Shown here: positions 1,129 to 11,306 of the stretch, one piece after another
How positions within the stretch are numbered: the first letter of the stretch is position 1
How the letters are laid out: every line of letters begins with the position of its first letter
Virus genome (UHGV): UHGV-1326493
Strand: one strand, 5' to 3'
Length of the DNA stretch: 11,306 bases
Source: a virus
The notes under the pieces: generated by a model
Seen by the model: the letters and a program-made list of their open reading frames with translations, nothing else
Told to the model about the DNA's origin: nothing
Databases searched by the model: none
Position numbers and translations under genes: made by a program

Positions 1129-1475
1129 CTTTATTTGATTAATAATGCATCACTGCGGCCACGCTGCAGCGATTCCTTGTATCTGGAGCAAATTAAATGA
1201 CAGATATTATAAATAGGAATTGTTATTTAATAATATTTGAAAATGAAAATCATGGACGATAGGAATAAAAGTAGTACTTGTTATTTTTAAGTGACGCATT
1301 AAACGCATAAAGCATATGTCTGTTGATCAAGATTCTTGCTTGTTGTAAAATAATTGTTTTGTTCATGTTGCATAGTTTTAAAGTGAATAGAAGATTATTT
1401 TTCAAAACAATTGCATCTTTGTCTGCAGTCATTCCGTTTTCTTCAATATCTAAATTTTCAAACAGGATGACTAAT

Positions 1476-4208
1476 ATGCCTGATATAACTCCAAATGTTG
1501 TAATTGGGATGCCTTCTCAACTCTTCACTATGGCTCGTTCTTTTAAAGCCGTAGCTAATGGCAAAATTTATATCGGTAAAATTGACACTGACCCTGTAAA
1601 TCCTGAAAACCAGATTCAGGTTTATGTAGAGAATGAAGATGGTTCTCACGTTCCTGTTTCGCAACCAATCGTTATCAATGCTGCTGGATATCCTGTATAT
1701 AACGGACAGATTGCTAAATTCGTTACTGTGAAAGGACACTCTATGGCTGTGTACGATGCTTATGGTACGCAGCAGTTCTATTTTCCGAATGTGCTGAAGT
1801 ATGACCCGGATCAGTTACGGCAGCAATTAGAAGATCCTGATGGTGCTAAAAAATACCCTGAATTACAGATTGCACGATGGCGGGATGATAAAGACGTTCG
1901 CGGGTGGGGGGCGGATGACTCTGGGAATAGAGATTCAACACAGGCTTTTCTTGACGCCGCATCTAGCGCAGGAAATAGTGGTTTGGTTCATGTGCCTTCT
2001 GGTGAGTTTATAGTTGATGCATCGAAAATAGATATTTCACGCTTCTCCGGTGATGGTGTTCTAATCAGTAATGGTGTTCGCATTTCTGTTAATCCGCCGA
2101 TGCAAAGTTTCTCCATTGGACAAAGAAAACTTGCGACCCTGAATTTTGGTGATGATATCAATGCGCCAACTATATATGCGAATGCACAAAATGCATTGCA
2201 GGGAATAGCTTGTGTAAGGCATGAAGGTATTGAGAAGGTTTTTATCACTCAACAGGTTGGAGGTTCTAACTGGGGAACGGACACCCTCACAAGGATCAGT
2301 GAGTGGCACTATACAAGCGATGGTTCGACCCTTTCTGTTGTGACATTTACAGAGCCATTGCCTCTTGGTCACGGTTCAGATCTTTCTGCCACAATAGAGA
2401 ACGGTGAACTATATCTGTTTACAACAACAATTGCTGAGACTGGTTCCTCTCTAGGAGGGAAGGGGTATTCAAAGACAAAATGGAAAGGGGCATCAACATC
2501 TGCTGAAGATATAACTCATTACCGAGTATTTGGTGAGCCGGGTGATAATAATCTGATTAACCTTGCGCAGCGGGCAAGTATTTGTGTATCTAATGATGGG
2601 CGATATGTCATATTAATTGCGACATCAAACGCTGGGACTGGCCGCTTTTTATACGTATATGATCGCAAAGAAGTGGAATCTTCTTCTAACCCAATGAAAG
2701 TTAGACCGATTAATGGTCCTGTTCCACTTGTCCGTGGTAAAGGTCAGTATGGTGCAACGCTTCAGGGTATTACATCAGATAGCAGATATATTTACACAAT
2801 TTGGGGTGGCGTTCCTGCAAGATGCGTAAGGACAGTCCAGATTTATGATATGGGTGGTACGCTAATACGTTCGTTTCCTGTATCACTTGCCGCATCACTT
2901 TATACAGAGACTCAGTTAAATGGTTCTGACTCTAAAATCGGAGTTCCGGTTAGCTTTGAGCCTGAAGGGCTGGCAATAAGAGGTGATGAACTTGTCTGTG
3001 GTGCTATGGATGTATGGAAAAGCGCAGGGGATGTTGTAAGCCATCGTGGTAAAAATTGGGTAAGTACTGTTACTGGTGATAACAAGGGAAATCTTCCGAC
3101 AAACAGGTCTTATTGGTTAAAAACATCGCTTGCAGCGACAAATGGTGAATGGGATTCAGGTGCAACATATAAATCAGGCGATTATACTCGCAGAAATAAG
3201 CATCTGTTTGGAGTAGCAAACCTGTCTGATATTCTTGGCAACCATCCAGTGCATGGCGCAGAATCCGATCCGTATACCGGAACCGCGTATCAATATTATG
3301 CTGGAACTGATATCGCCTTTAACCGTGAGCACGGTTCATTTACTATTGCGATATTTGACGAAGCCATTGGAGAGTATACCAAATCCCTCGAGTTGAATTA
3401 TGGAAATAACCTTAACCTGTTTGATACAGATTACGGCCATGACAATAATTCATGGGTAAGTACGAAAGCAGTATTCGACTCAAACTTTCGAGGTATGCAG
3501 TTCCGTTCTAAAGATGGCAATACTGCGGGTGGTGCTTATATTGATATCCATGCTGCTGATTGTCCATCTGCGGCTGGTGAGTTGATACTTGCCTCTACAG
3601 ATGGAGGTGTCGTCAGACTTAAGCAGGGGAATGTAACAGTATTTTCTGCGACTAAAGATACTACATCGACATGGGCGACGACGACATTAAGGCCAACAAC
3701 TGATAACCAGGTATCACTTGGAAGGTCCGTTAACCGCTTTTCTCAGGTCTACGCAGGGACTGCAACTATAAATACATCTGATGCAACAGAGAAAACGGAA
3801 GTCAGAACTCTTTCCGATAAAGAGCAGGCGGTTGGGTTAGCTCTTGTTGATGAAATTGGTTTTTATCAATGGCTTGATAGTGTAAAAAATAAGGGAGCTG
3901 ATGCCAGACTTCATGCCGGACTTACGGTGCAACGGGCAATGGAAATATTCAGAGAGAATGGACTTGATCCATTTAAATACGGAGCGATCTGCTATGACAG
4001 ATGGGATGCATATACAGATACAGATCCTGCTGTTTATGATGATGAAGGTAACCTTGTTCGTGAGGCTATAACTATTACGCATGAAGCAGGAGAACGCTAT
4101 GCATTCAGAAACGATGAATTACAGTATCTAATGATTGCTGCATTAGGTATACGTCAGAAAAATATTATAAAGAGGATTGAAGAACTGGAAAATAAGTTAA
4201 AAAATTAA
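1476..4208 (+). CDS. tailspike protein: P22-type head-binding N-terminal domain, distinct receptor-binding body, C-terminal intramolecular-chaperone-like domain
   Basis: N-terminus [59 protein letters not shown]...[10 protein letters not shown]...NVLKYDPDQ parallels P22 gp9 (MTDITANVVV...[38 protein letters not shown]...). Start chosen at ATG 1476, with AGGA 8 nt upstream and alignment to gp9 Met1; ATG 1467 is an alternative. The track start at 1323 is a coincidental in-frame extension through AT-rich leader. Stop TAA 4206-4208. Confidence 0.9.
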
Positions 4209-4299: not shown

Positions 4300-4605
4300 A
4301 TGCATAGTGGTATTTCTATGGACATTACACCAGTTCTTCACGCTCTTTATGCTATAGCTGCACAGACACTGTGTGGCATACTTACCGGGAACTGGGCTTA
4401 CGGGGCGATAGCCGGTTGTGCGTTCTTCATTGCTCGTGAACATACCCAGGCAGAATATCGCTGGATTGAAATGTTCGGGCATGGCAAGCGTATGAATATG
4501 CCGTGGTGGGGAGGGTTTGATCCACGCGTGTGGGATGTGGGAAGTCTGTTGGATTTTTCTTTCCCAATTATCGGATGCTTATTGGTATGGATTCTTGCAT
4601 CGTAG
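4300..4605 (+). CDS. hypothetical small membrane protein (about 95-101 aa, 2-3 predicted hydrophobic helices)
   Basis: ORF reads ...MDITPVLHALYAIAAQTLCGILTGNWAYGAIAGCAFFIAREHTQAEYRWIEMFGHGKRMNMPWWGGFDPRVWDVGSLLDFSFPIIGCLLVWILAS, with hydrophobic stretches at both ends. No convincing SD for ATG 4300 or ATG 4318. A TATAAT hexamer lies at 4245-4250. Sits between the tailspike and sib/attP. Confidence 0.45.
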   Translation: MHSGISMDITPVLHALYAIAAQTLCGILTGNWAYGAIAGCAFFIAREHTQAEYRWIEMFGHGKRMNMPWWGGFDPRVWDVGSLLDFSFPIIGCLLVWILAS

Positions 4606-4750: not shown

Positions 4751-4992
4751 CTGTTACAGGTCACTAATACCATCTAAGTAGTTGATTCATAGTGACTGCA
4801 CATGCTGTGTTTTGCAGTATTATGTAGTCTATTATTTAGACCAAAACCATCATAACACATTGATATTGATGATTTTTCTTGTTTCTCATTCAGCTTTTTT
4901 ATACTAAGTTGGCCTTATAAAAAAGCATTGCTTATCAATTTGTTGCAACGAACAGGTCACTATCAGTCAAAATAAAATCATTATTTGATTTC
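4751..4992. other. attP: complete lambda-type attP (P arm, 15-bp core, P' arm)
   Basis: Core GCTTTTTTATACTAA at 4893-4907 flanked by CA...GTTGG as in lambda attP. Arm-type Int sites are present: P arm CTGTTACAGGTCACTAATAC and TTCATAGTGACTGCA (4751-4800), P' arm ACAGGTCACTATCAGTCAAAATAAAATCATTAT (4952-4984). The P' arm overlaps the 3' end of int, as in lambda. Confidence 0.85.
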
Positions 4993-6051
4993 AATTTTGT
5001 CCCACTCCCTGCCTCTGTCATCACGATACTGTGATGCCATGGTGTCCGACTTATGCCCGAGAAGATGTTGAGCAAATTTATCGCTTATCTGCTTCTCATA
5101 GAGTCTTGCAGACAAACTGCGCAACTCGTGAAAGGTTGGCGGATCCCCTTCGAAGGAAAGACCTGATGCTTTTCGTGCGCGCATAAAATACCTTGATACT
5201 GTGCCGGATGAAAGCGGTTCACGACGAGTAGATGCAATTATGGTTTCTCCGCCAAGAATCTCTTTGCATTTACCAAGTGTTTCCTTCATTGATATCCCGA
5301 GAGCATCAACATGCAATGTTGTAGGGATGGCAATTTTTACGCCTGTTTTGCTTTGCTCGACATAAAGATATCCATCTACGATATCAGACCACTTCATTTC
5401 GCATAAATCACCAACTCTCTGCCCGGTAACAACAGCCAGTTCCATTGCAAGTCTGAGCCAACATGGTGATGATTCTGCTGCTTGATAAATTTTCAGGTAT
5501 TCGTCAGCCGTAAGTCTTGATCTCCTTACCTCTGATTTTGCTGCGCGAGTGGCAGCGACCGGGTTTGTTGTTATATGGCCTTCAGCTATTGCCTCTCGGA
5601 ATGCATCGCTCAGTGTTGATCTGATTAACTTGGCTGACGCCGCCTTGCCCTCGTCTATGTATCCATTGAGCATTGCTGCAATTTCTTTTGTGGTGATGTC
5701 TTCAAGTGGAGCATCAGGCAGACCCCTCCTTATTGCTTTAATTTTGCTCATGTAATTTATGAGTGTCTTCTGCTTGATTCCTCTGTTGGCGAGGATTTTT
5801 TCGTAGCGATCAAGCCATGAATGTAACGTAACAGAATTATCACTGTTGATTCTCGCTGTCAGAGGCTTGTGTTTGTGTCCTGAAAATAACTCAATGTTGG
5901 CCTGTATAGCTTCAGTGATTGCTATCCTCCTGTCTCGGCCTAATCCAAACTCTTTACCCGTCCTTGGGTCCCTGTAGCAGTAATATCCATTGTTTCTTAT
6001 ATAAAGATTAGGGGGTAAATCCCGGTGCTCATGACTTCGCCTTCTTCCCAT
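4981..6051 (-). CDS. int: tyrosine integrase, lambda Int type, 356 aa
   Basis: MGRRRSHEHRDLPPNLYIRNNGYYCYRDPRTGKEFGLGRDRRIAITEAIQANIELF...HELRSLSARLYEKQISDKFAQHLLGHKSDTMASQYRDDRGREWDKIEIK is near-identical to lambda Int as I recall it. R-x-x-R, H-x-x-R, H and the Y in ...MASQYRDD are intact. Overlaps xis by 23 nt. Confidence 0.97.
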   Translation of the reverse strand: MGRRRSHEHRDLPPNLYIRNNGYYCYRDPRTGKEFGLGRDRRIAITEAIQANIELFSGHKHKPLTARINSDNSVTLHSWLDRYEKILANRGIKQKTLINYMSKIKAIRRGLPDAPLEDITTKEIAAMLNGYIDEGKAASAKLIRSTLSDAFREAIAEGHITTNPVAATRAAKSEVRRSRLTADEYLKIYQAAESSPCWLRLAMELAVVTGQRVGDLCEMKWSDIVDGYLYVEQSKTGVKIAIPTTLHVDALGISMKETLGKCKEILGGETIIASTRREPLSSGTVSRYFMRARKASGLSFEGDPPTFHELRSLSARLYEKQISDKFAQHLLGHKSDTMASQYRDDRGREWDKIEIK

Positions 6052-6247
6052 TTTTGATCCTCTTCAAAAGGCTACCTGTTACTGGTCGATTTAAGTCAAC
6101 CTTTACCGCTGATTCGTGGAACAGATACTCTCTTCCATCCTTAACCGGAGGAGGGAATATCCTGCACTCGCGTACCCATCGACGAACTGTTTCAAGGCTT
6201 CTTGGGCGTCGCTGGCGTGCGTTCCACTCCTGAAGTGTCAAGTACAT
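6029..6247 (-). CDS. xis: excisionase, lambda Xis type, 72 aa
   Basis: MYLTLQEWNARQRRPRSLETVRRWVRECRIFPPPVKDGREYLFHESAVKVDLNRP...KKAKS matches lambda Xis. Has the characteristic overlap with the int start. Confidence 0.95.
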   Translation of the reverse strand: MYLTLQEWNARQRRPRSLETVRRWVRECRIFPPPVKDGREYLFHESAVKVDLNRPVTGSLLKRIKNGKKAKS

Positions 6248-6270
6248 CGCAAAGTCTCCGCAATTACACG

Positions 6271-6297
6271 CAAGAAAAAGCCGCCATCAGGCGGCTT
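6271..6297 (-). terminator. hairpin plus T-run on the leftward strand between the 55-aa ORF and xis
   Basis: Minus strand: AAGCCGCC / loop TGAT / GGCGGCTT then TTTCTTG. The stop codon (TGA) of the upstream 55-aa ORF lies in the loop. Confidence 0.4.
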
Positions 6298-6454
6298 GGT
6301 GTTCTTTCAGTTCTTCAATTCGAATATTGGTTACGTCTGCATGTGCTATCTGCGCCCACAGCATCCAGTGGTCATAGCAGTCGTTGATGTTCTCTGCTTC
6401 GATAACTCTGTTGAATGGTTCTCCATTCCATTCACCTGTGACTTGGAAGTGCAT
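6287..6454 (-). CDS. hypothetical protein, 55 aa (not in the track; below its length cutoff)
   Basis: ATG at plus 6452-6454 (complement) is preceded by GGAG at 7-nt spacing. Translation MHFQVTGEWNGEPFNRVIEAENINDCYDHWMLWAQIAHADVTNIRIEELKEHQAA, stop TGA at 6287-6289. Co-directional with the operon. Confidence 0.45.
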   Translation of the reverse strand: MHFQVTGEWNGEPFNRVIEAENINDCYDHWMLWAQIAHADVTNIRIEELKEHQAA

Positions 6455-6526
6455 TTATCATCTCCATAAAACAAAACTCGCCGTAGCGAGTTCAGATAAA
6501 AGAAATCCCCGCGAGTGCGAGGATTG

Positions 6527-6811
6527 TTATTCATTGTCGATATTTACCTTTATCGCGAACACCTTTACCGGTTTATCGCTAAAGTGAGGATGTGTGATTG
6601 TCTTGATTTCATATCCGCCATACGGGACGTCTATTTTGCGACTGGAATCGTCGCGCTTCGGATATCCCCTTGTGATAATCAGGCGGTCATACTCCCGGAA
6701 CATAATTCGCTTATTCCAGTAGTTATTACACAGGCGATACTCTTCCGTTTTCTCGCCTGACTTCATCTGGTCGAAATATTCACCGTTAACTGCCAGTTGA
6801 AGGTTAGCCAC
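6527..6811 (-). CDS. hypothetical protein, possible ASCH/PUA-like beta-barrel (about 94 aa)
   Basis: GTG start (plus 6809-6811) with GGAGG 6 nt upstream; it overlaps the upstream stop as GTGGCTAA. Product ...AVNGEYFDQMKSGEKTEEYRLCNNYWNKRIMFREYDRLIITRGYPKRDD... resembles the EYF..v.sG.KT.E.R opening of ASCH-type domains (weak, from memory). The track's longer form 6527..6883 adds a hydrophobic leader overlapping the upstream gene in another frame. Confidence 0.5.
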   Translation of the reverse strand: MANLQLAVNGEYFDQMKSGEKTEEYRLCNNYWNKRIMFREYDRLIITRGYPKRDDSSRKIDVPYGGYEIKTITHPHFSDKPVKVFAIKVNIDNE

Positions 6812-7094
6812 GGTTAACCTCCAGTTGTGGTGCTGCCTCAAGAGCAGCCCTGTAACCAGCAGCATGACCGCGAAAGTTAGCAATTTCTGATAGCCACGCT
6901 TTAATCATGTCCTGAGTTGGTTCCTTCGGCACCATAACCCAACCATCCGGAGTTACCGGAGAGTTGCCAGCCTTGCGCATGGCAATCTCCACGATTTCAA
7001 CCATATCTCCTGGCGGAATTTTGCAATGCTGACCAAAGCGCCTCTGCTGTCTGGCATATTCGAGGATGTGCTCCAGCTTGGTACGATTAATCAT
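6804..7094 (-). CDS. hypothetical protein, 96 aa
   Basis: ATG at 7094 with AAGGGAGA upstream; ATGA start/stop overlap with the upstream gene. No recognisable domain. Confidence 0.6.
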   Translation of the reverse strand: MINRTKLEHILEYARQQRRFGQHCKIPPGDMVEIVEIAMRKAGNSPVTPDGWVMVPKEPTQDMIKAWLSEIANFRGHAAGYRAALEAAPQLEVNRG

Positions 7095-7474
7095 GATTTA
7101 TCTCCCTTAAGCATGGCGGCGCGGCAGGAGTTCCAGCCTCTCACCTCTGCAATAGCGGCAACAGCATCGACCGCGTACATTTTAAGAGGGTTAGGCATTG
7201 GTTTTTCTTCAGGTACTACTGGCACTGGAGGGGCGGCATAAACAGGAATAACGTCCGATTGATCTTTATTGCTTTCATCCGTTAAAGCCCAGAATAATTT
7301 CCCGGCCGGATGTTTGAAAATATAAGCAACTGGTTCTGCTTCCAGCGATGCCTGTGCGATACGAAACACATTGGCAAGCAGGCTGTCTGTAGATTGGTTA
7401 TCGTGCGCCGGGTCGCTCAGGAAACCAGTGATGAATGATTTAATTTCCGCGTTTTCTCTGGTAATAGTGGTCAT
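7091..7474 (-). CDS. hypothetical protein, 127 aa
   Basis: ATG at 7474 with AAGGA upstream; ATGA overlap with the upstream gene. No recognisable domain. Confidence 0.6.
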   Translation of the reverse strand: MTTITRENAEIKSFITGFLSDPAHDNQSTDSLLANVFRIAQASLEAEPVAYIFKHPAGKLFWALTDESNKDQSDVIPVYAAPPVPVVPEEKPMPNPLKMYAVDAVAAIAEVRGWNSCRAAMLKGDKS

Positions 7475-7680
7475 TTGTTAATCCTTAAAACTTTATGCCC
7501 TGGCGCAAAAGCACGTGTTTTGTCTTTGCTTATTCGCCAGCCATCCTTACGTGCCTCTTTTGCACAGCCAGCCCATGACGTACCGATATACTCACCGAAG
7601 TCTGGCGTTTGATATTTACCATTTGTACACTGGCGACAATCACAGTAGAGATGCATGGTGTAACTTGCGGCAATAGCCAT
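7471..7680 (-). CDS. small Cys-rich protein, putative zinc-ribbon (69 aa)
   Basis: Start chosen at the internal ATG (plus 7678-7680) because AAGGAGA lies 7 nt upstream; the track's longer form 7471..7788 has no such signal. Product MAIAASYTMHLYCDCRQCTNGKYQTPDFGEYIGTSWAGCAKEARKDGWR... has a C-x-C-x2-C ... C arrangement. Confidence 0.55.
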   Translation of the reverse strand: MAIAASYTMHLYCDCRQCTNGKYQTPDFGEYIGTSWAGCAKEARKDGWRISKDKTRAFAPGHKVLRINK

Positions 7681-7681
7681 A

Positions 7682-7873
7682 TCAGTCTCCTTTAGTGCGC
7701 AAGTGGTTTTTCCAGCGGTTTTGCGCCGCGCTGCCCTTATCTCGGACTCCCTCTCTGGCAATTCCAGAAAATGAAAACAACACCACACGACGATTGCTAA
7801 CTCTCAACCACTGGCTGGGATAGCAAAGTCTGTATACACGGGAGATAAGCATCTTAGCTTTACGGTTTTTCAT
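7682..7873 (-). CDS. small basic protein, 63 aa; paralogue of the adjacent 58-aa gene
   Basis: Starts MKNRKAK; ATGA overlap with the upstream paralogue. Its 5' end carries the 18-nt repeat GATGAAAAACCGTAAAGC (plus 7857-7874). Confidence 0.5.
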   Translation of the reverse strand: MKNRKAKMLISRVYRLCYPSQWLRVSNRRVVLFSFSGIAREGVRDKGSAAQNRWKNHLRTKGD

Positions 7874-8046
7874 CTTACTGCGTACCCTTTCTTCCGCCTG
7901 TTCTGTGACGCGCTAGGCTTACGCTTTGCGGCAAAAGCCACCTGACCAAATGGATGGAGTACCGCTATCTTATGGTTGCTGATAACCAGCTCCACCACAC
8001 GCACAGGTCGCTGTAAAAAAAGTCGTTTTGCTTTACGGTTTTTCAT
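7870..8046 (-). CDS. small basic protein, 58 aa; paralogue of the adjacent 63-aa gene
   Basis: Internal ATG (plus 8044-8046) preceded by AGGAGAG at 7-nt spacing; starts MKNRKAKRLFLQRPVRVV... The same 18-nt repeat lies at plus 8030-8047. The track's longer form 7870..8088 is unsupported. Confidence 0.5.
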   Translation of the reverse strand: MKNRKAKRLFLQRPVRVVELVISNHKIAVLHPFGQVAFAAKRKPSASQNRRKKGYAVR

Positions 8047-8896
8047 CGTTTTGCTCTCCTGCGTCTCCTTTGATGCGAATGCCAGCAAGCCAGTTTCTTA
8101 TGCCGATATATTCAGCGTTCCTGAAACCGCTTTTTACATATATAAATGGCAAGCGAAGATTGTGACCATTGGCTGCCAGGTAGTCTTTACAACCCTGTTC
8201 GGTGAAACAGCAGGTAACGAATTCATCAATATCTTTCACAGCAACGCGCCGCCATTTTTCTGGTGGCTCTCGAAAGTTTTCATGAAGTAGTTCGAGACGA
8301 CGACTTTGGCGTTTATTGGCTTCATTGCCATCTTCATCAACCCAGACAATCCGGTCATAGTCATAATCAGCATCAACAACAATTTCGCGCTTTTGATACA
8401 CACAAAACATAGGGTCTGACGTTATTCGATTATCCTGTGTTCGAATATTTTCACCGATGATGCCAAACGAATCTGGTGCAGATTTTGTCTGCAACTCTGC
8501 TATGCGCTTACTTCCATCCGAGATAACACCTTCGTAATACTCGCGCTGCTCGTTGAGTTTTGATTTTGTCTCCTCAAGCTCAACACGCAGCTTCCCTACC
8601 GTTAGCGCAATATCCTCGTTCTCCTGGTCACGGCGTTTTATGTATTGCTGGTTTCTTTCCCGTTCATCCAGCAGCGCCTGCACTACTTCAGGGTTGAAAG
8701 CTGCGATATAACGCGCGTTATTCTCTGCGTTTTCCTGTCCATCAAAGCCGGTCCATTTGATAACGTCTTCACATCGTTTATCACCTGGTGTATGCACCGC
8801 ATATGTACCAGTACCCGACGAAATAAATGCGACCCATTCGCCTTGTGTTGCCTGTTTTGCTATCTCACGCAGTGCCTGGTAATTAATTTCGCTCAC
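8033..8896 (-). CDS. Ea22-like early protein, 287 aa
   Basis: GTG start with GGAGG 6 nt upstream. MSEINYQALRE... and ...LDERERNQQYIKRRDQENEDIALTVGKLRVELEETKSKLNEQREYYEGVISDGSKRIAEL... and the ending GIRIKGD... match what I recall of lambda Ea22; the middle and C-terminal half differ. Confidence 0.7.
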   Translation of the reverse strand: MSEINYQALREIAKQATQGEWVAFISSGTGTYAVHTPGDKRCEDVIKWTGFDGQENAENNARYIAAFNPEVVQALLDERERNQQYIKRRDQENEDIALTVGKLRVELEETKSKLNEQREYYEGVISDGSKRIAELQTKSAPDSFGIIGENIRTQDNRITSDPMFCVYQKREIVVDADYDYDRIVWVDEDGNEANKRQSRRLELLHENFREPPEKWRRVAVKDIDEFVTCCFTEQGCKDYLAANGHNLRLPFIYVKSGFRNAEYIGIRNWLAGIRIKGDAGEQNDEKP

Positions 8897-9200
8897 TGGC
8901 TGCCTCCTTTGCTGGGCTTTCTAACTTCTGAGTGGTTGTATCAAACTCAAACAACTTAACCACGTCATCAAACAGGACATAATCGCCATCAGAATCTTCA
9001 GTCATGTCAGCGCCACAATCCTGACCGAACGAGTCACAACCATCCATATCAAGTTCGTATCGCTTGAGTTTTGCGATATTTGATAAATTCAGCGCCAGTA
9101 CAGCAAGGTCATAAACCTCATCAGCGGTATACCCGGCACCATGCCCATACATTTCAATGCGGGATATGATTTCTTCTACCCGTTGTTTTGTGATTGTCAT
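8883..9200 (-). CDS. hypothetical acidic protein, 105 aa
   Basis: ATG at 9200 in ATGA overlap with the upstream gene; its 3' end overlaps the Ea22-like start by 14 nt. Confidence 0.55.
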   Translation of the reverse strand: MTITKQRVEEIISRIEMYGHGAGYTADEVYDLAVLALNLSNIAKLKRYELDMDGCDSFGQDCGADMTEDSDGDYVLFDDVVKLFEFDTTTQKLESPAKEAASERN

Positions 9201-9658
9201 TTTTGCTCACCACTCTGTTCTTCCAGAAAAATACGCATAGCCTCAAGCATCTCTTCGGTGTCATACGGAGACAGCTTGTCACGCAGGATGTGTTCAATGC
9301 TGTTAATGAACTTGCGGATTGCTTTGCGTTCAATTTCAGCCAGGAAAGCATCGGTGGCTGGGGTTTCAGTAACATCATCTTCCCATTCGCTAAACTCCTC
9401 ACGACAAAAGTCATTAAATTCCTTCTCAGATTGCTTAAGCGAGGTATTTTCAGCAGCCATCTTCGCGCATTTAGCCTCAAGGTTATCAATCGTGATTCCA
9501 GCAGAACTACACTCCCGCAACGCCGTTTCCAGTTTTGATTCAAGTTCACCGAACTTACGGACAAGATATTCAGCGTTTGTTTCGTTAACCTTTAAATCTC
9601 GTGGGATGCATTTGCCTTTCAGAAAACCATCCATCTCAATTAGTGACATTTGTTTCAT
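9197..9658 (-). CDS. hypothetical acidic protein, 153 aa
   Basis: Start placed at ATG plus 9656-9658, which forms an ATGA overlap with the stop of the 54-aa ORF upstream. The track's GTG start at 9676 has no SD. Confidence 0.55.
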
Positions 9659-9819
9659 TTCTTCCCACTCCGCCACATCGCATTCAGATATTTGTTTTGA
9701 TTTACTGATGGAAAAGAATTTCTCTTAAGCAATTCCTCTCTCGATGGCATTGGCTTTACGCGTTGGCGAATAATCATTTCTGCCGGAAGAATGCCGGGAT
9801 TGTATGCAAGTCCTCTCAT
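9655..9819 (-). CDS. hypothetical protein, 54 aa (not in the track; below its length cutoff)
   Basis: ATG at plus 9817-9819 overlaps the stop of the upstream gene (ATGA); GGAGAG 5 nt upstream; its own stop overlaps the next start (ATGA). Translation [54 protein letters not shown]. Confidence 0.45.
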
Positions 9820-10106
9820 GATTTACTCTCCACTAACTGGTCAATAGCCATGCTAAGTGACATACCTAAAGTCTCGATATGCTGCTGAATATCCTGTAGC
9901 GTCTGCGCCTGAGATAACAGGATTTCACGGTTGCATAACTCTTTAACCAGATGCTCAAACTTGCTGTAATAACCGATACGGCTTAGTGTTTCTTTCCCTG
10001 CATTCTCGCCTTCTTTGATAATTCCTCTTTCACTAAGAATCAGGTCGTGTTTGGTTCCGGTAATAACGTATTTTCCGAGGTCGATGTTTAGCTTCATTGT
10101 TTTCAT
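9816..10106 (-). CDS. hypothetical protein, 96 aa
   Basis: Start chosen at ATG plus 10104-10106 ([17 protein letters not shown]...) with GAGGAA 6 nt upstream. The track's longer form to 10289 would overlap the upstream gene by about 170 nt. Confidence 0.5.
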
Positions 10107-10116
10107 TGTTAATTCC

Positions 10117-10413
10117 TCAGTCATTACTGATAGCGCCATAGCGTGAGCGGTAATTACGCAGGCGCGGGTCGATATATTCAGGGAAGTGGGTATATGTGGC
10201 TTTGCGGAATGGTCGGATTGATGTCTGGTAAATCCGCTCGCGCTCTTCTTTCTCTGCAAGCCATATACAGTGGCGAAATTCCTTTTCATCTTTCGTTTCC
10301 TGCGGTAGAGACATTATCTGGTCGTAGTTTTTCCTGAATTTATCCAGCACCTCCGATACGGAATTGCCGGAACAGCGGCGCGCGTCATCCGCACCATACA
10401 GAGGCGCTGGCAT
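10117..10413 (-). CDS. hypothetical protein, 98 aa
   Basis: ATG at 10413 with AGGAGA 5 nt upstream; 13 nt after the ssb stop. Confidence 0.6.
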   Translation of the reverse strand: MPAPLYGADDARRCSGNSVSEVLDKFRKNYDQIMSLPQETKDEKEFRHCIWLAEKEERERIYQTSIRPFRKATYTHFPEYIDPRLRNYRSRYGAISND

Positions 10414-10426
10414 GATTTTCTCCTGA

Positions 10427-10942
10427 TTAAATTGCGTGAATAGCGTGACGAGGGAAGGGGAGAGTTACTGGTGCAAAGGGTATATCGTCGTCAAAATCCA
10501 TAGGTGGTTCGCTGTGATTCCCCTGCTGCTGAGATTGCTGTTTTTGTTGCTTACCGTTATTTCGCTGAGGTGAAGACTGTTCATTGCCTCCTTGCTTGCC
10601 ACCAAGCATTTGCATGGTTCCACCAACTCCTACGATAACTTCGGTAGTGAACCGATCCTGTCCGCTTTGATCCTGCCATTTTCTTGTCCGCAATTTGCCT
10701 TCAAGATAAACCTCAGAGCCTTTTCGCAGATATTCGCTGGCAATTTCTGCCAGTTTCCCGCTCATTACCACGCGGTGCCACTCCGTCTGCTCCTTTTGCT
10801 CTCCAGTTTGCTTATCACGCCATTGCTCTGACGTAGCAACTGTAAGGTTTGCAAATGCCGTTCCTGATGGTGAATATCTGATTTCTGGATCATGCCCAAG
10901 GCGACCAATAATGATCACCTTATTTACGCCTCTGCTTGCCAT
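10427..10942 (-). CDS. ssb: single-stranded DNA-binding protein with a 15-residue extension beyond the canonical DDDIPF terminus
   Basis: [23 protein letters not shown]...[68 protein letters not shown]...[11 protein letters not shown] matches E. coli SSB ([23 protein letters not shown]...[52 protein letters not shown]...[11 protein letters not shown]). Here the frame continues [15 protein letters not shown] before TAA. Confidence 0.93.
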
Positions 10943-11306
10943 TTATGCCGCCTGTTTTAGTTCGTTAACTCTGATGTTCATTACCTGAACGCATTTAGCC
11001 TGCGCCTCCTCGTTGCCAGCCATTAATTGCCAGTCACGCTGATAACGCTCGATGAGTTTTTTCTTATCAGTTTCTGTTGACGCATAATCGCTGAAGTCTT
11101 TCAGGATTTGCTCGCAGTCAACCGATGGAGATTTCTGGTTGGCATTTTCTGGTGATGGTTTGTTATATGATGCTGGGATTGCCCATCCCGGCAGCGATGG
11201 AGGGAGCCAGTAAAATCCTGTTCCATCCTTCAGTTTTGCCCCGTGCCATCCCTGCTTTTTATCGAGAGATGTTTGTGCGAAACCTTCCTCAAGGTTATAC
11301 AGATAC
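10943..11306 (-). CDS. 3' portion of a gene running off the window (5'-partial); possibly an ERF-family annealing protein
   Basis: Minus-strand frame is open from the window edge to TAA (plus 10943-10945), which abuts the ssb ATG. C-terminus reads ...SVDCEQILKDFSDYASTETDKKKLIERYQRDWQLMAGNEEAQAKCVQVMNIRVNELKQAA, which resembles my recollection of the P22 Erf C-terminal tail. The family call is weak; the CDS call rests on the long open frame and the coupling. Confidence 0.55.
   Translation of the reverse strand, partial: YLYNLEEGFAQTSLDKKQGWHGAKLKDGTGFYWLPPSLPGWAIPASYNKPSPENANQKSPSVDCEQILKDFSDYASTETDKKKLIERYQRDWQLMAGNEEAQAKCVQVMNIRVNELKQAA

Follow-up and report, generated by a model that had tools for sequence, protein, structure and literature searches.

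The closest described systems to the locus considered here, a block of 13 small genes between ssb and xis in the virus genome UHGV-1326493, are the ea genes of P22-like phages and the exo-xis region of lambda and of Shiga-toxin (Stx) phages. The early-left operon of phage L, which is P22-like, contains 20 genes, mostly of unknown function, and is antiterminated by gp24 (PMC8022706). The exo-xis region (ea22, ea8.5, orf60a, orf61, orf63, orf73) is early and driven by the early-left promoter pL, adjoins xis, and has been described as dispensable and as modulating development; its deletion in phage 24B changes lysogenization and host chaperone expression (PMC10789677). A third arrangement, the nin region of lambda and P22, is likewise a series of numerous small, non-essential genes in which ATGA overlaps link stop and start codons (PMC8022706), a dense packing that is textbook for lambdoid accessory regions, but it belongs to a different operon (early-right) and differs in position and gene families. 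The window, by which we mean the whole 11,306-nucleotide stretch that was analyzed, is numbered from its first letter.

The block is very probably the promoter-distal, non-core "ea" segment of a P22-like early-left (pL) operon and the counterpart of the lambda exo-xis region. A reading made earlier from the letters of this DNA, here called the sequence-only reading, had placed it in the same way, and the position indeed agrees with that of lambda exo-xis and of the P22 ea genes. Position, strand and ATGA-type packing are those of the ea genes (eaA-eaI, abc1/abc2) of P22, L, ST64T, Sf6, HK620 and CUS-3, and the block has in common with these regions Abc2, a DUF5405 protein, a DUF2737 protein, an Ead/Ea22-like gene and a gene in the EaE slot, whose functions are mostly unknown. 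Unlike in P22, ssb occupies the abc1 position and int and xis are lambda/HK022-type genes. An Ea22-family member is found both here and in exo-xis, whereas homologues of ea8.5, orf60a, orf61 and orf63 were not detected in the block with Pfam or PHROG profiles. Likeness to the Stx exo-xis region extends to an Ea22 C-terminal domain of the type of Stx phage P27 and to homologues of three small genes (g8, g9 and g10) in the same region of Stx phages. The region class is thus already known and the block is an ordinary member of it: ea/exo-xis blocks have long been described as dense, mosaic sets of dispensable early genes, and as a region this one adds little. What the analysis yields is, for all 13 open reading frames (ORFs), a clean gene model with family assignments.

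A dense minus-strand gene block between ssb and xis

With the best start sites, 13 minus-strand genes run from 10413 to 6287. In the order of the operon, with the two boundary genes and three terminator-like hairpins, they are:

10427..10942, minus strand: ssb, right boundary of the block (Pfam SSB, 2.1e-38)
10117..10413, minus strand: abc2, anti-RecBCD protein 2, 98 amino acids (Pfam Anti-RecBCD_p2 end to end)
9816..10106, minus strand: g3, DUF5405 protein, 96 amino acids (93 from an alternative start at 10097)
9655..9819, minus strand: g4, DUF2737 protein, 54 amino acids, isoelectric point (pI) 11 (Pfam DUF2737, 2.6e-31)
9197..9658, minus strand: g5, acidic coiled-coil protein in the EaE slot, 153 amino acids, charge -12
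8883..9200, minus strand: g6, very acidic protein, 105 amino acids, pI 4.2, charge -13 (phrog_3126, 2.6e-67)
8489..8896, minus strand: N-terminus of the Ea22-like protein, Ead_Ea22 and coiled coil, residues 1-136 of 287
8033..8479, minus strand: C-terminal part of the Ea22-like protein (domain of about 125 amino acids, 8033 to about 8440)
7870..8046, minus strand: g8, very basic protein, 58 amino acids, pI 12.0 (phrog_1380, 3e-23)
7682..7873, minus strand: g9, very basic protein, 63 amino acids, pI 11.7 (phrog_1380, 3.8e-34)
7471..7680, minus strand: g10, Cys-rich protein, 69 amino acids (phrog_926, 4.5e-37)
7091..7474, minus strand: g11, N-terminal module of a DUF551-type protein, 127 amino acids
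6804..7094, minus strand: g12, two-module protein, 96 amino acids (phrog_24004 over residues 1-53, phrog_12449/phrog_60 over 39-95)
6527..6811, minus strand: ASCH-like protein, 94 amino acids, GTG start (phrog_625, 3.1e-48)
6474..6525, minus strand: two tandem intrinsic-terminator-like hairpins (terminator scan), in the 72-nucleotide gap between the ASCH-like gene and g14, the only long gap
6287..6454, minus strand: g14, acidic protein, 55 amino acids (phrog_676, 3e-39)
6278..6297, minus strand: third terminator-like hairpin (terminator scan), overlapping the g14 stop codon, upstream of xis
6029..6247, minus strand: xis, left boundary of the block (Pfam Exc, 7.6e-41)

This dense, overlapping gene block is confirmed as real. 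Coding density over 6287-10413 is 0.98, all 13 reading frames are intact, and a Shine-Dalgarno-like sequence precedes most of them. From ssb to int the gaps are +13, +10, -4, -4, -4, -14, -14, -4, +1, -4, -4, -8, +72, +39 and -23 nucleotides, so that, between abc2 and g14, adjacent genes overlap or lie at most 1 nucleotide apart at 10 of 12 junctions. The six ATGA couplings named by the sequence-only reading (7091-7094, 7471-7474, 7870-7873, 9197-9200, 9655-9658 and 9816-9819) are all present on the minus strand, as are the 8-nucleotide overlap at 6804-6811 (GTGGCTAA) and the 14-nucleotide overlaps at 8033-8046 (ATGAAAAACCGTAA) and 8883-8896 (GTGAGCGAAATTAA). In 500 first-order Markov randomizations the mean number of ATGA couplings was 0.068 (maximum 1), and minus-strand ORF coverage, 0.99 here, averaged 0.34 (maximum 0.64). 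The count of about 13 tightly coupled genes was thus borne out, whereas overlap at nearly every junction from ssb to xis holds as far as the ASCH-like gene and gives way to gaps of 72 and 39 nucleotides at the last two. No RNA gene was found in the block by Rfam search (E-value up to 1) or tRNA scan.

To the right, the C-terminus of a recombinase, read from the translation of 10943-11305, ends at 10943 with zero gap to the ssb start, and a Rad52/Rad22 family gene is annotated directly upstream of ssb in two (L001 and L005) of the nine relatives used for comparison (L001-L009). Recombinase, ssb, abc2, the 12 small genes, xis and int all lie on the minus strand, and the order is the same in the nine relatives. 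Promoter-like (sigma-70-like) sites are depleted, with 1 found against 8.0 ± 2.5 expected, and the promoter scan returned none inside the block on the minus strand. The tandem hairpins at 6474-6525 fold with -27.3 kcal/mol (z = -5.06) and have a U run after each stem; the second of them is conserved in L002, L005, L008 and L009. The hairpin at 6278-6297 folds with -17.6 kcal/mol (z = -3.4) and was not found as an exact pattern in 13 loci compared. As a result, g14 is bracketed by terminator-like hairpins within the presumed operon.

The sequence-only reading had taken this arrangement to indicate one polycistronic leftward transcript. The genes are indeed co-directional and arranged for translational coupling; a single transcript, however, has to be inferred, and three hairpins stand between the ASCH-like gene and xis. 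Intra-operon terminators are common in phage L, where they were suggested to stop transcripts that are not antiterminated (PMC8022706). By analogy, transcription would start at pL, to the right of the window, and an N/gp24-type antiterminator would make the pL transcript resistant to termination. This transcript would pass the recombinase, ssb, abc2 and the 12 small genes and read through the hairpins at 6525-6474 and 6297-6278 into xis and int, which would need antitermination of this type, while transcripts that are not antiterminated would be stopped at the hairpins as suggested for phage L. The start/stop overlaps would couple the translation of adjoining genes, which, like those of exo-xis, are presumably dispensable.

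Several points weigh against placing the block as the accessory, pL-driven segment of the operon. pL, nutL and the antiterminator gene lie outside the window, so the single-transcript model is derived from synteny, and most transcripts could instead terminate at the hairpins and not reach g14 and xis. The phrog_154 family of g3 carries the label "replication initiation protein"; if that label were correct, g3 would be core rather than accessory, but no support for it was found. In addition, g11 may be a non-functional remnant, and 11 of the 13 genes are without a demonstrated function.

Family assignments and the question of anti-defence

Abc2 of phage P22 binds RecBCD and alters RecBCD activity. 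The first gene of the block encodes a full-length member of this family: residues 1-98 align with positions 1-97 of the 97-position profile PF11043 (E 9.5e-61, 202.5 bits, cut-off 25), the PHROG family is phrog_656, "abc2 anti-RecBCD", and identity to Abc2 of HK022, Sf6 and E. coli prophages is 94-96%. Redirection of host RecBCD is therefore a well-founded expectation for this protein, the family having been assigned here and the activity being carried over from the work on P22. The sequence-only reading had recognized the Ea22-like and ASCH-like products alone, which does not hold, since Abc2 at 10117-10413 is followed by a DUF5405 and a DUF2737 protein. The DUF5405 match of g3 is modest (E 1.2e-5, 26 bits, cut-off 21.6), with phrog_154 at 1.1e-32; the gene is present in seven of the nine relatives at 95% identity or more and corresponds to Sf6 gene 24. 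g4, the equivalent of Sf6 gene 23, whose record notes similarity to HK620 HKaI, was found in all nine at 94-100% identity, with a nonsynonymous substitution rate (dN) well below the synonymous rate (dS). In a text search of the literature one paper mentioned DUF2737 and none DUF5405, and functional literature was found for neither.

All 13 products match PHROG families (E-value at most 3e-23), the best-hit family being of "unknown function" for 11 of them; none was matched in NCBIfam. The sequence-only reading had proposed profile and structure-prediction screening of each ORF. On the profile side, Abc2 was the only product to match an anti-defence family, the 12 others having no such match in Pfam, PHROG or NCBIfam, and on the structure side the models of g6 and of the Ea22 C-terminal domain were unusable. 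PADLOC-DB 2.0 likewise gave no significant match for the 13 proteins, g5 showing a weak coiled-coil alignment to RTasPolA (E 0.0044). Sequence searches of the PDB returned nothing for g3, g5, g6, g10, g11, g12 or the ASCH-like protein.

Regions of this kind have been sampled before. Silas et al. delimited accessory regions by computation across 1,706 enterobacteriophage genomes, gave several high-scoring ones the labels "Eaa", "EaaRecBCD" and "EaaLike", and put 200 accessory genes through a screen that took in Abc2, a DUF5405 protein and a DUF551 fragment (bioRxiv 10.1101/2023.04.06.535777). Judged from their names, these labels appear to denote the same region class as the block. The Abc2 used as a control in that study is 66% identical to the one encoded here, and its DUF5405 accessory gene UDP0003 is 35% identical to g3. 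None of six exact peptide words, from g3, g4, g6, g8/g9, g10 and g14, occurred in the gene list of the screen, from which these genes are apparently absent. The proposal that the region is a place to look for new anti-defence proteins is thus sensible, but it is not new, as similarly labelled regions were already sampled. A transcriptomics paper on phage BTP1 (PMC7067206) contained nothing on this region.

Could the block be mainly an anti-defence island, in which several of the 12 genes other than abc2 act directly as inhibitors of host immunity, for example of restriction-modification, retrons or Gabija? The block adjoins Abc2, Lar-family restriction-alleviation genes occupy equivalent slots of relatives, and the cassette-like variability is the signature that Silas et al. 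used to find counter-defence genes. Moreover, g5, g6 and g14 are small and strongly acidic, like DNA-mimic inhibitors, and the C-terminal domain of the Ea22-like protein is fused to Lar in 2 of 144 family representatives and in one distant copy lies near a T7 gp5.9-type RecBCD inhibitor. Acidity and position, however, predict such a function weakly, and abc2 alone of the 13 genes matched an anti-defence family in Pfam, NCBIfam or PHROG. The DUF5405 and DUF551 representatives were not named among the genes with phenotypes in the main text of the Silas preprint, and experiments on the homologous exo-xis region report developmental rather than defence effects. An island devoted mainly to anti-defence is regarded as rather unlikely.

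The block is an assembly of exchangeable pieces. Searches with the DNA of 6000-10950 gave matches in 617 phage records and in 3,953 of 5,426 complete E. coli genomes, with identities of roughly 80-99%. The best matches, at 91-97%, are Lederbergvirus phages, HK022, Sf6 and E. coli prophages, with Stx phages also among the best. No record covers 80% or more of this interval; the best matches are split into 4-9 pieces, and the whole cassette combination was found in no phage or complete E. coli genome searched. Judged from these matches, the pattern is that of a classic lambdoid mosaic. Among the nine relatives, abc2, g3, g4 and g14 are near-universal and g5, g6 and g8-g12 sporadic, and the slot between abc2 and xis is filled by Ea22-like, EaE, Lar, DUF551, DUF550/dATP-dGTP pyrophosphohydrolase and ASCH genes. 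For all ten products looked up, g3 to g12, identical sequences are present in public protein collections, in most cases from numerous E. coli or Salmonella contigs. Several genes would thus have been assembled from a shuffled pool of modules comprising the Ead_Ea22 N-terminus, the Ea22 C-terminal domain, DUF551, DUF550/MazG-like, Lar and ASCH.

g11 looks like a truncated by-product of such shuffling. It is 98% identical to residues 1-124 of the 217-amino-acid DUF551 protein P0098, has no Pfam DUF551 match, and is probably a recombination-truncated gene. Its neighbor g12, for which no Pfam match was found, has only the linker GNSPVTPDGW in common with P0098, so the g11/g12 junction is attributed to module exchange; this linker seems to be a point at which modules are repeatedly joined in frame by recombination. 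A single frameshifted gene spanning g11 and g12 was considered and rejected, as g11 is the N-terminal module of the DUF551 protein and g12 has no more than a 12-residue linker in common with it. The ASCH-like protein falls below the Pfam cut-off for PF04266 (E 0.035, 15.2 bits, cut-off 21.2), and its homologues in L007-L009, 86-91% identical, are annotated as ASCH domain-containing proteins.

The truncation of g11, which lacks the DUF551 domain, raises the question of whether part of the block consists of decaying, non-functional ORF fragments left by mosaic recombination. Similar fragments are marked as pseudogenes by RefSeq in L001, L005 and L008, and the exact Ea22-like protein was found on only one contig in a collection of 15 billion proteins. 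Decay is nonetheless considered improbable, because the frames are intact, coupled and mostly provided with Shine-Dalgarno-like sequences, coding density is 98%, and dN/dS is well below 1 for g4, g6, g8, g9 and g10.

The Ea22-like protein and its C-terminal domain

Ea22 proteins are described as having a common N-terminus and coiled coil joined to unrelated, portable C-terminal domains (PMC10834534). The protein encoded here follows this plan. Residues 2-136 match Pfam PF13935 Ead_Ea22 (6.7e-44), and this N-terminus is variable, being 30-93% identical to relatives and often over part of its length only. The alignment of Ea22-like proteins shows a hypervariable N-terminus, a coiled-coil segment with "KRIAELE" and a highly conserved C-terminal domain. 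The latter, assigned to phrog_3205 and bearing the motifs TQDNRxT...FVTACFTEQGCKDYLxxNGHNLRxPFIYxxGSYRNxE, is 97-99% identical in six of the nine relatives, where it is joined to different N-termini, and 97.8% identical to that of Ea22 from Stx phage P27. Neither Pfam nor sequence and profile searches against the PDB gave a match for the C-terminal domain, and the protein as a whole found no PDB chain at an E-value of 1 or below except chance matches; because of this lack of a PDB match, the domain is taken to be unrelated to its counterpart in lambda Ea22, whose structure is known from nuclear magnetic resonance.

In lambda and phage 24B, development moves away from lysogeny when ea22 is deleted, and among the P27 genes tested early in infection ea22 was the most highly expressed (PMC7093339). 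The Ea22-like protein would form a coiled-coil oligomer, of a family reported to favor lysogeny, and by analogy a role in the lysis-lysogeny balance is plausible. On a broader reading, the block as a whole mainly tunes the lysis-lysogeny decision and host physiology and is not aimed at host immunity. The P27-type C-terminal domain, the ea22 phenotypes, the altered lysogenization and chaperone expression of the 24B exo-xis deletion and the g8, g9 and g10 homologues in the same region of Stx phages all point in this direction, whereas the studied lambda exo-xis genes other than ea22 have no homologue here by Pfam or PHROG. Developmental phenotypes could also follow from effects on host nucleases or stress responses, and such tuning is compatible with anti-defence roles, so the two readings do not exclude each other. 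A mainly developmental function is held as a tentative possibility.

The C-terminal domain is widespread and uncharacterized, a side result of the analysis and not something the sequence-only reading had proposed. An exhaustive HMMER profile search found it in at least 1,702 clusters (clustered at 50% identity); for 1,096 of these the E-value was 1e-10 or below. Among 144 representatives of the family, the N-terminal extension is variable (median 80 amino acids), none has a Pfam match over the domain, and a few are fused to Ead_Ea22, DUF551, Lar, dATP/dGTP pyrophosphohydrolase (DUF550) or DUF3850. Copies with 40-56% identity occur in Buttiauxella, Pectobacterium, Serratia, Marinobacter, Azospirillum, Micromonospora and a Planctomycetes genome, as well as in several metagenome bins. 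They thus span Gammaproteobacteria, Alphaproteobacteria, Actinobacteria, Planctomycetes and Dependentiae, together with a contig of a Methanosarcinales bin. The domain is nearly always C-terminal, following a hypervariable and often coiled-coil N-terminus, and lies mostly in arrays of small co-directional genes; integrases, RdgC, PAPS reductase, dUTPase, thymidylate kinase, ParB and primase are among the neighbors at the loci of the distant copies.

Eight residues of the domain are invariant, and six of these are polar or charged (Q, T, H, N, R, E), which suggested an enzyme or a specific ligand binder. A bolder proposal, which we consider unlikely, is that this is an undescribed pan-phage effector domain of either kind, responsible for the actual activity of Ea22 proteins and directed at a host target that is conserved across phyla. 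The AlphaFold model, built from 25 sequences, was too poor to use (mean predicted local distance difference test, pLDDT, of 57), and a Foldseek search of the PDB with this poor model gave no match below an E-value of 0.8. The domain is the only unexplained item of the region and might repay further work: solving its function would help explain a gene family of thousands of prophages, including Shiga-toxin phages.

Small charged proteins and flanking genes

g8, g9 and g10 have an odd composition and, as judged from their substitution pattern, are protein-coding genes under purifying selection. In comparisons with homologues in other phages, changes were observed mostly at third positions and dN/dS was about 0.07-0.4, with 0.07 for g8, 0.08 for g9 and 0-0.24 for g10; the same third-position bias with dN below dS was observed for g4 and g6, and for g14 in most comparisons. 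A non-coding RNA element in the g8/g9 region was ruled out by the Rfam and tRNA scans and by dN/dS. The two genes are tandem paralogues with 42% amino acid identity and a common 28-nucleotide start region, and a stretch homologous to them is left unannotated by RefSeq in L001. Homologues of g9 were found in phiV10 (87% identity), Salmonella phage Sasha (97%), and the P1-like RCS47 and a Stx2c phage (55%). The P1-like phage-plasmid RCS47 and the epsilon15-like phiV10, the latter with three tandem paralogues, carry homologues of g8, g9 and g10, and many Stx phages carry those of g9 and g10. The presence of these genes in unrelated phage types indicates that the cassettes move between them. The family of g10 is narrow and enterobacterial (47 clusters); in 19 homologues its YCDCxxC motif is invariant and an ARKDGWRISKD...APGHK stretch is conserved.

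For g5 the match to phrog_614 (2.8e-60) is clear and the Pfam matches are weak and coiled-coil in nature; the gene is patchy among the relatives, at 41-98% identity, and its slot is annotated EaE in L002 and eae protein in L006. g6, for which no match was found in Pfam or NCBIfam, belongs to a narrow enterobacterial family (269 clusters; dN/dS 0.13-0.21), and its slot holds a Lar-family restriction-alleviation gene in L001. Its AlphaFold2 model, from a 22-sequence alignment, was too poor to interpret (pLDDT 50). An extra Cys-containing C-terminal tail was observed in some g6 homologues: HNHHFINGTCVECLK. g14 is full-length in seven of the nine relatives, at 89-98% identity, with a partial match in Sf6.

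The remaining small charged proteins, three very basic and four acidic, would be exchanged among lambdoid, P1-like, epsilon15-like and Sasha-like phages. Most plausibly they bind proteins of the host or of rival phages, or nucleic acids, and would thereby adjust early development or oppose the nucleases and defences of the host. Candidate genes for work on function are g5, g6, g8/g9, g10, g14 and the ASCH-like gene.

A further idea is that some of these genes are moron-like, that is, prophage-encoded defence or superinfection exclusion genes protecting the lysogen. In temperate phages, defence genes are frequently found in variable slots, and the surroundings of the g9 homologue of phage Sasha, which adjoins a ParB-like gene and lies beside HNH and methylase genes, resemble a defence-like neighborhood. 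The genes here, however, are very small and without enzymatic domains, and because there is no significant PADLOC match and no internal minus-strand promoter-like site, which would make expression in a repressed lysogen unlikely, this idea is very improbable.

The 11.3-kb window as a whole shows the marker genes of a P22-like temperate prophage of E. coli, namely xis (an Exc-type excisionase) and ssb, both listed above, together with the following:

799-1050: Mnt repressor, a hallmark of a P22-like element
1323-4208, plus strand: tailspike with P22 head-binding domain
4981-6051: lambda-type integrase (int)

In the tailspike, the N-terminus is the head-binding domain of P22 and the C-terminus an endosialidase-type intramolecular chaperone (Peptidase_S74), with a weak match to CBM_5_12 in addition; its receptor-binding part is therefore unlike that of P22 gp9. 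The left end of the window, which precedes mnt and the tailspike gene, has a plus-strand ORF at 36-362 that resembles SocA/Panacea-domain antitoxins (Pfam, 5.5e-18) and is overlapped by a plus-strand ORF of 164 amino acids at 292-786, which has no Pfam match and a weak PADLOC match to NsnC (6.9e-6). This pair may be a toxin-antitoxin or defence pair. Finally, a plus-strand ORF at 4300-4605, between the tailspike gene and int, encodes 101 amino acids with hydrophobic stretches; it had no Pfam or PADLOC match and may be a moron gene, situated on the side of the attachment site.

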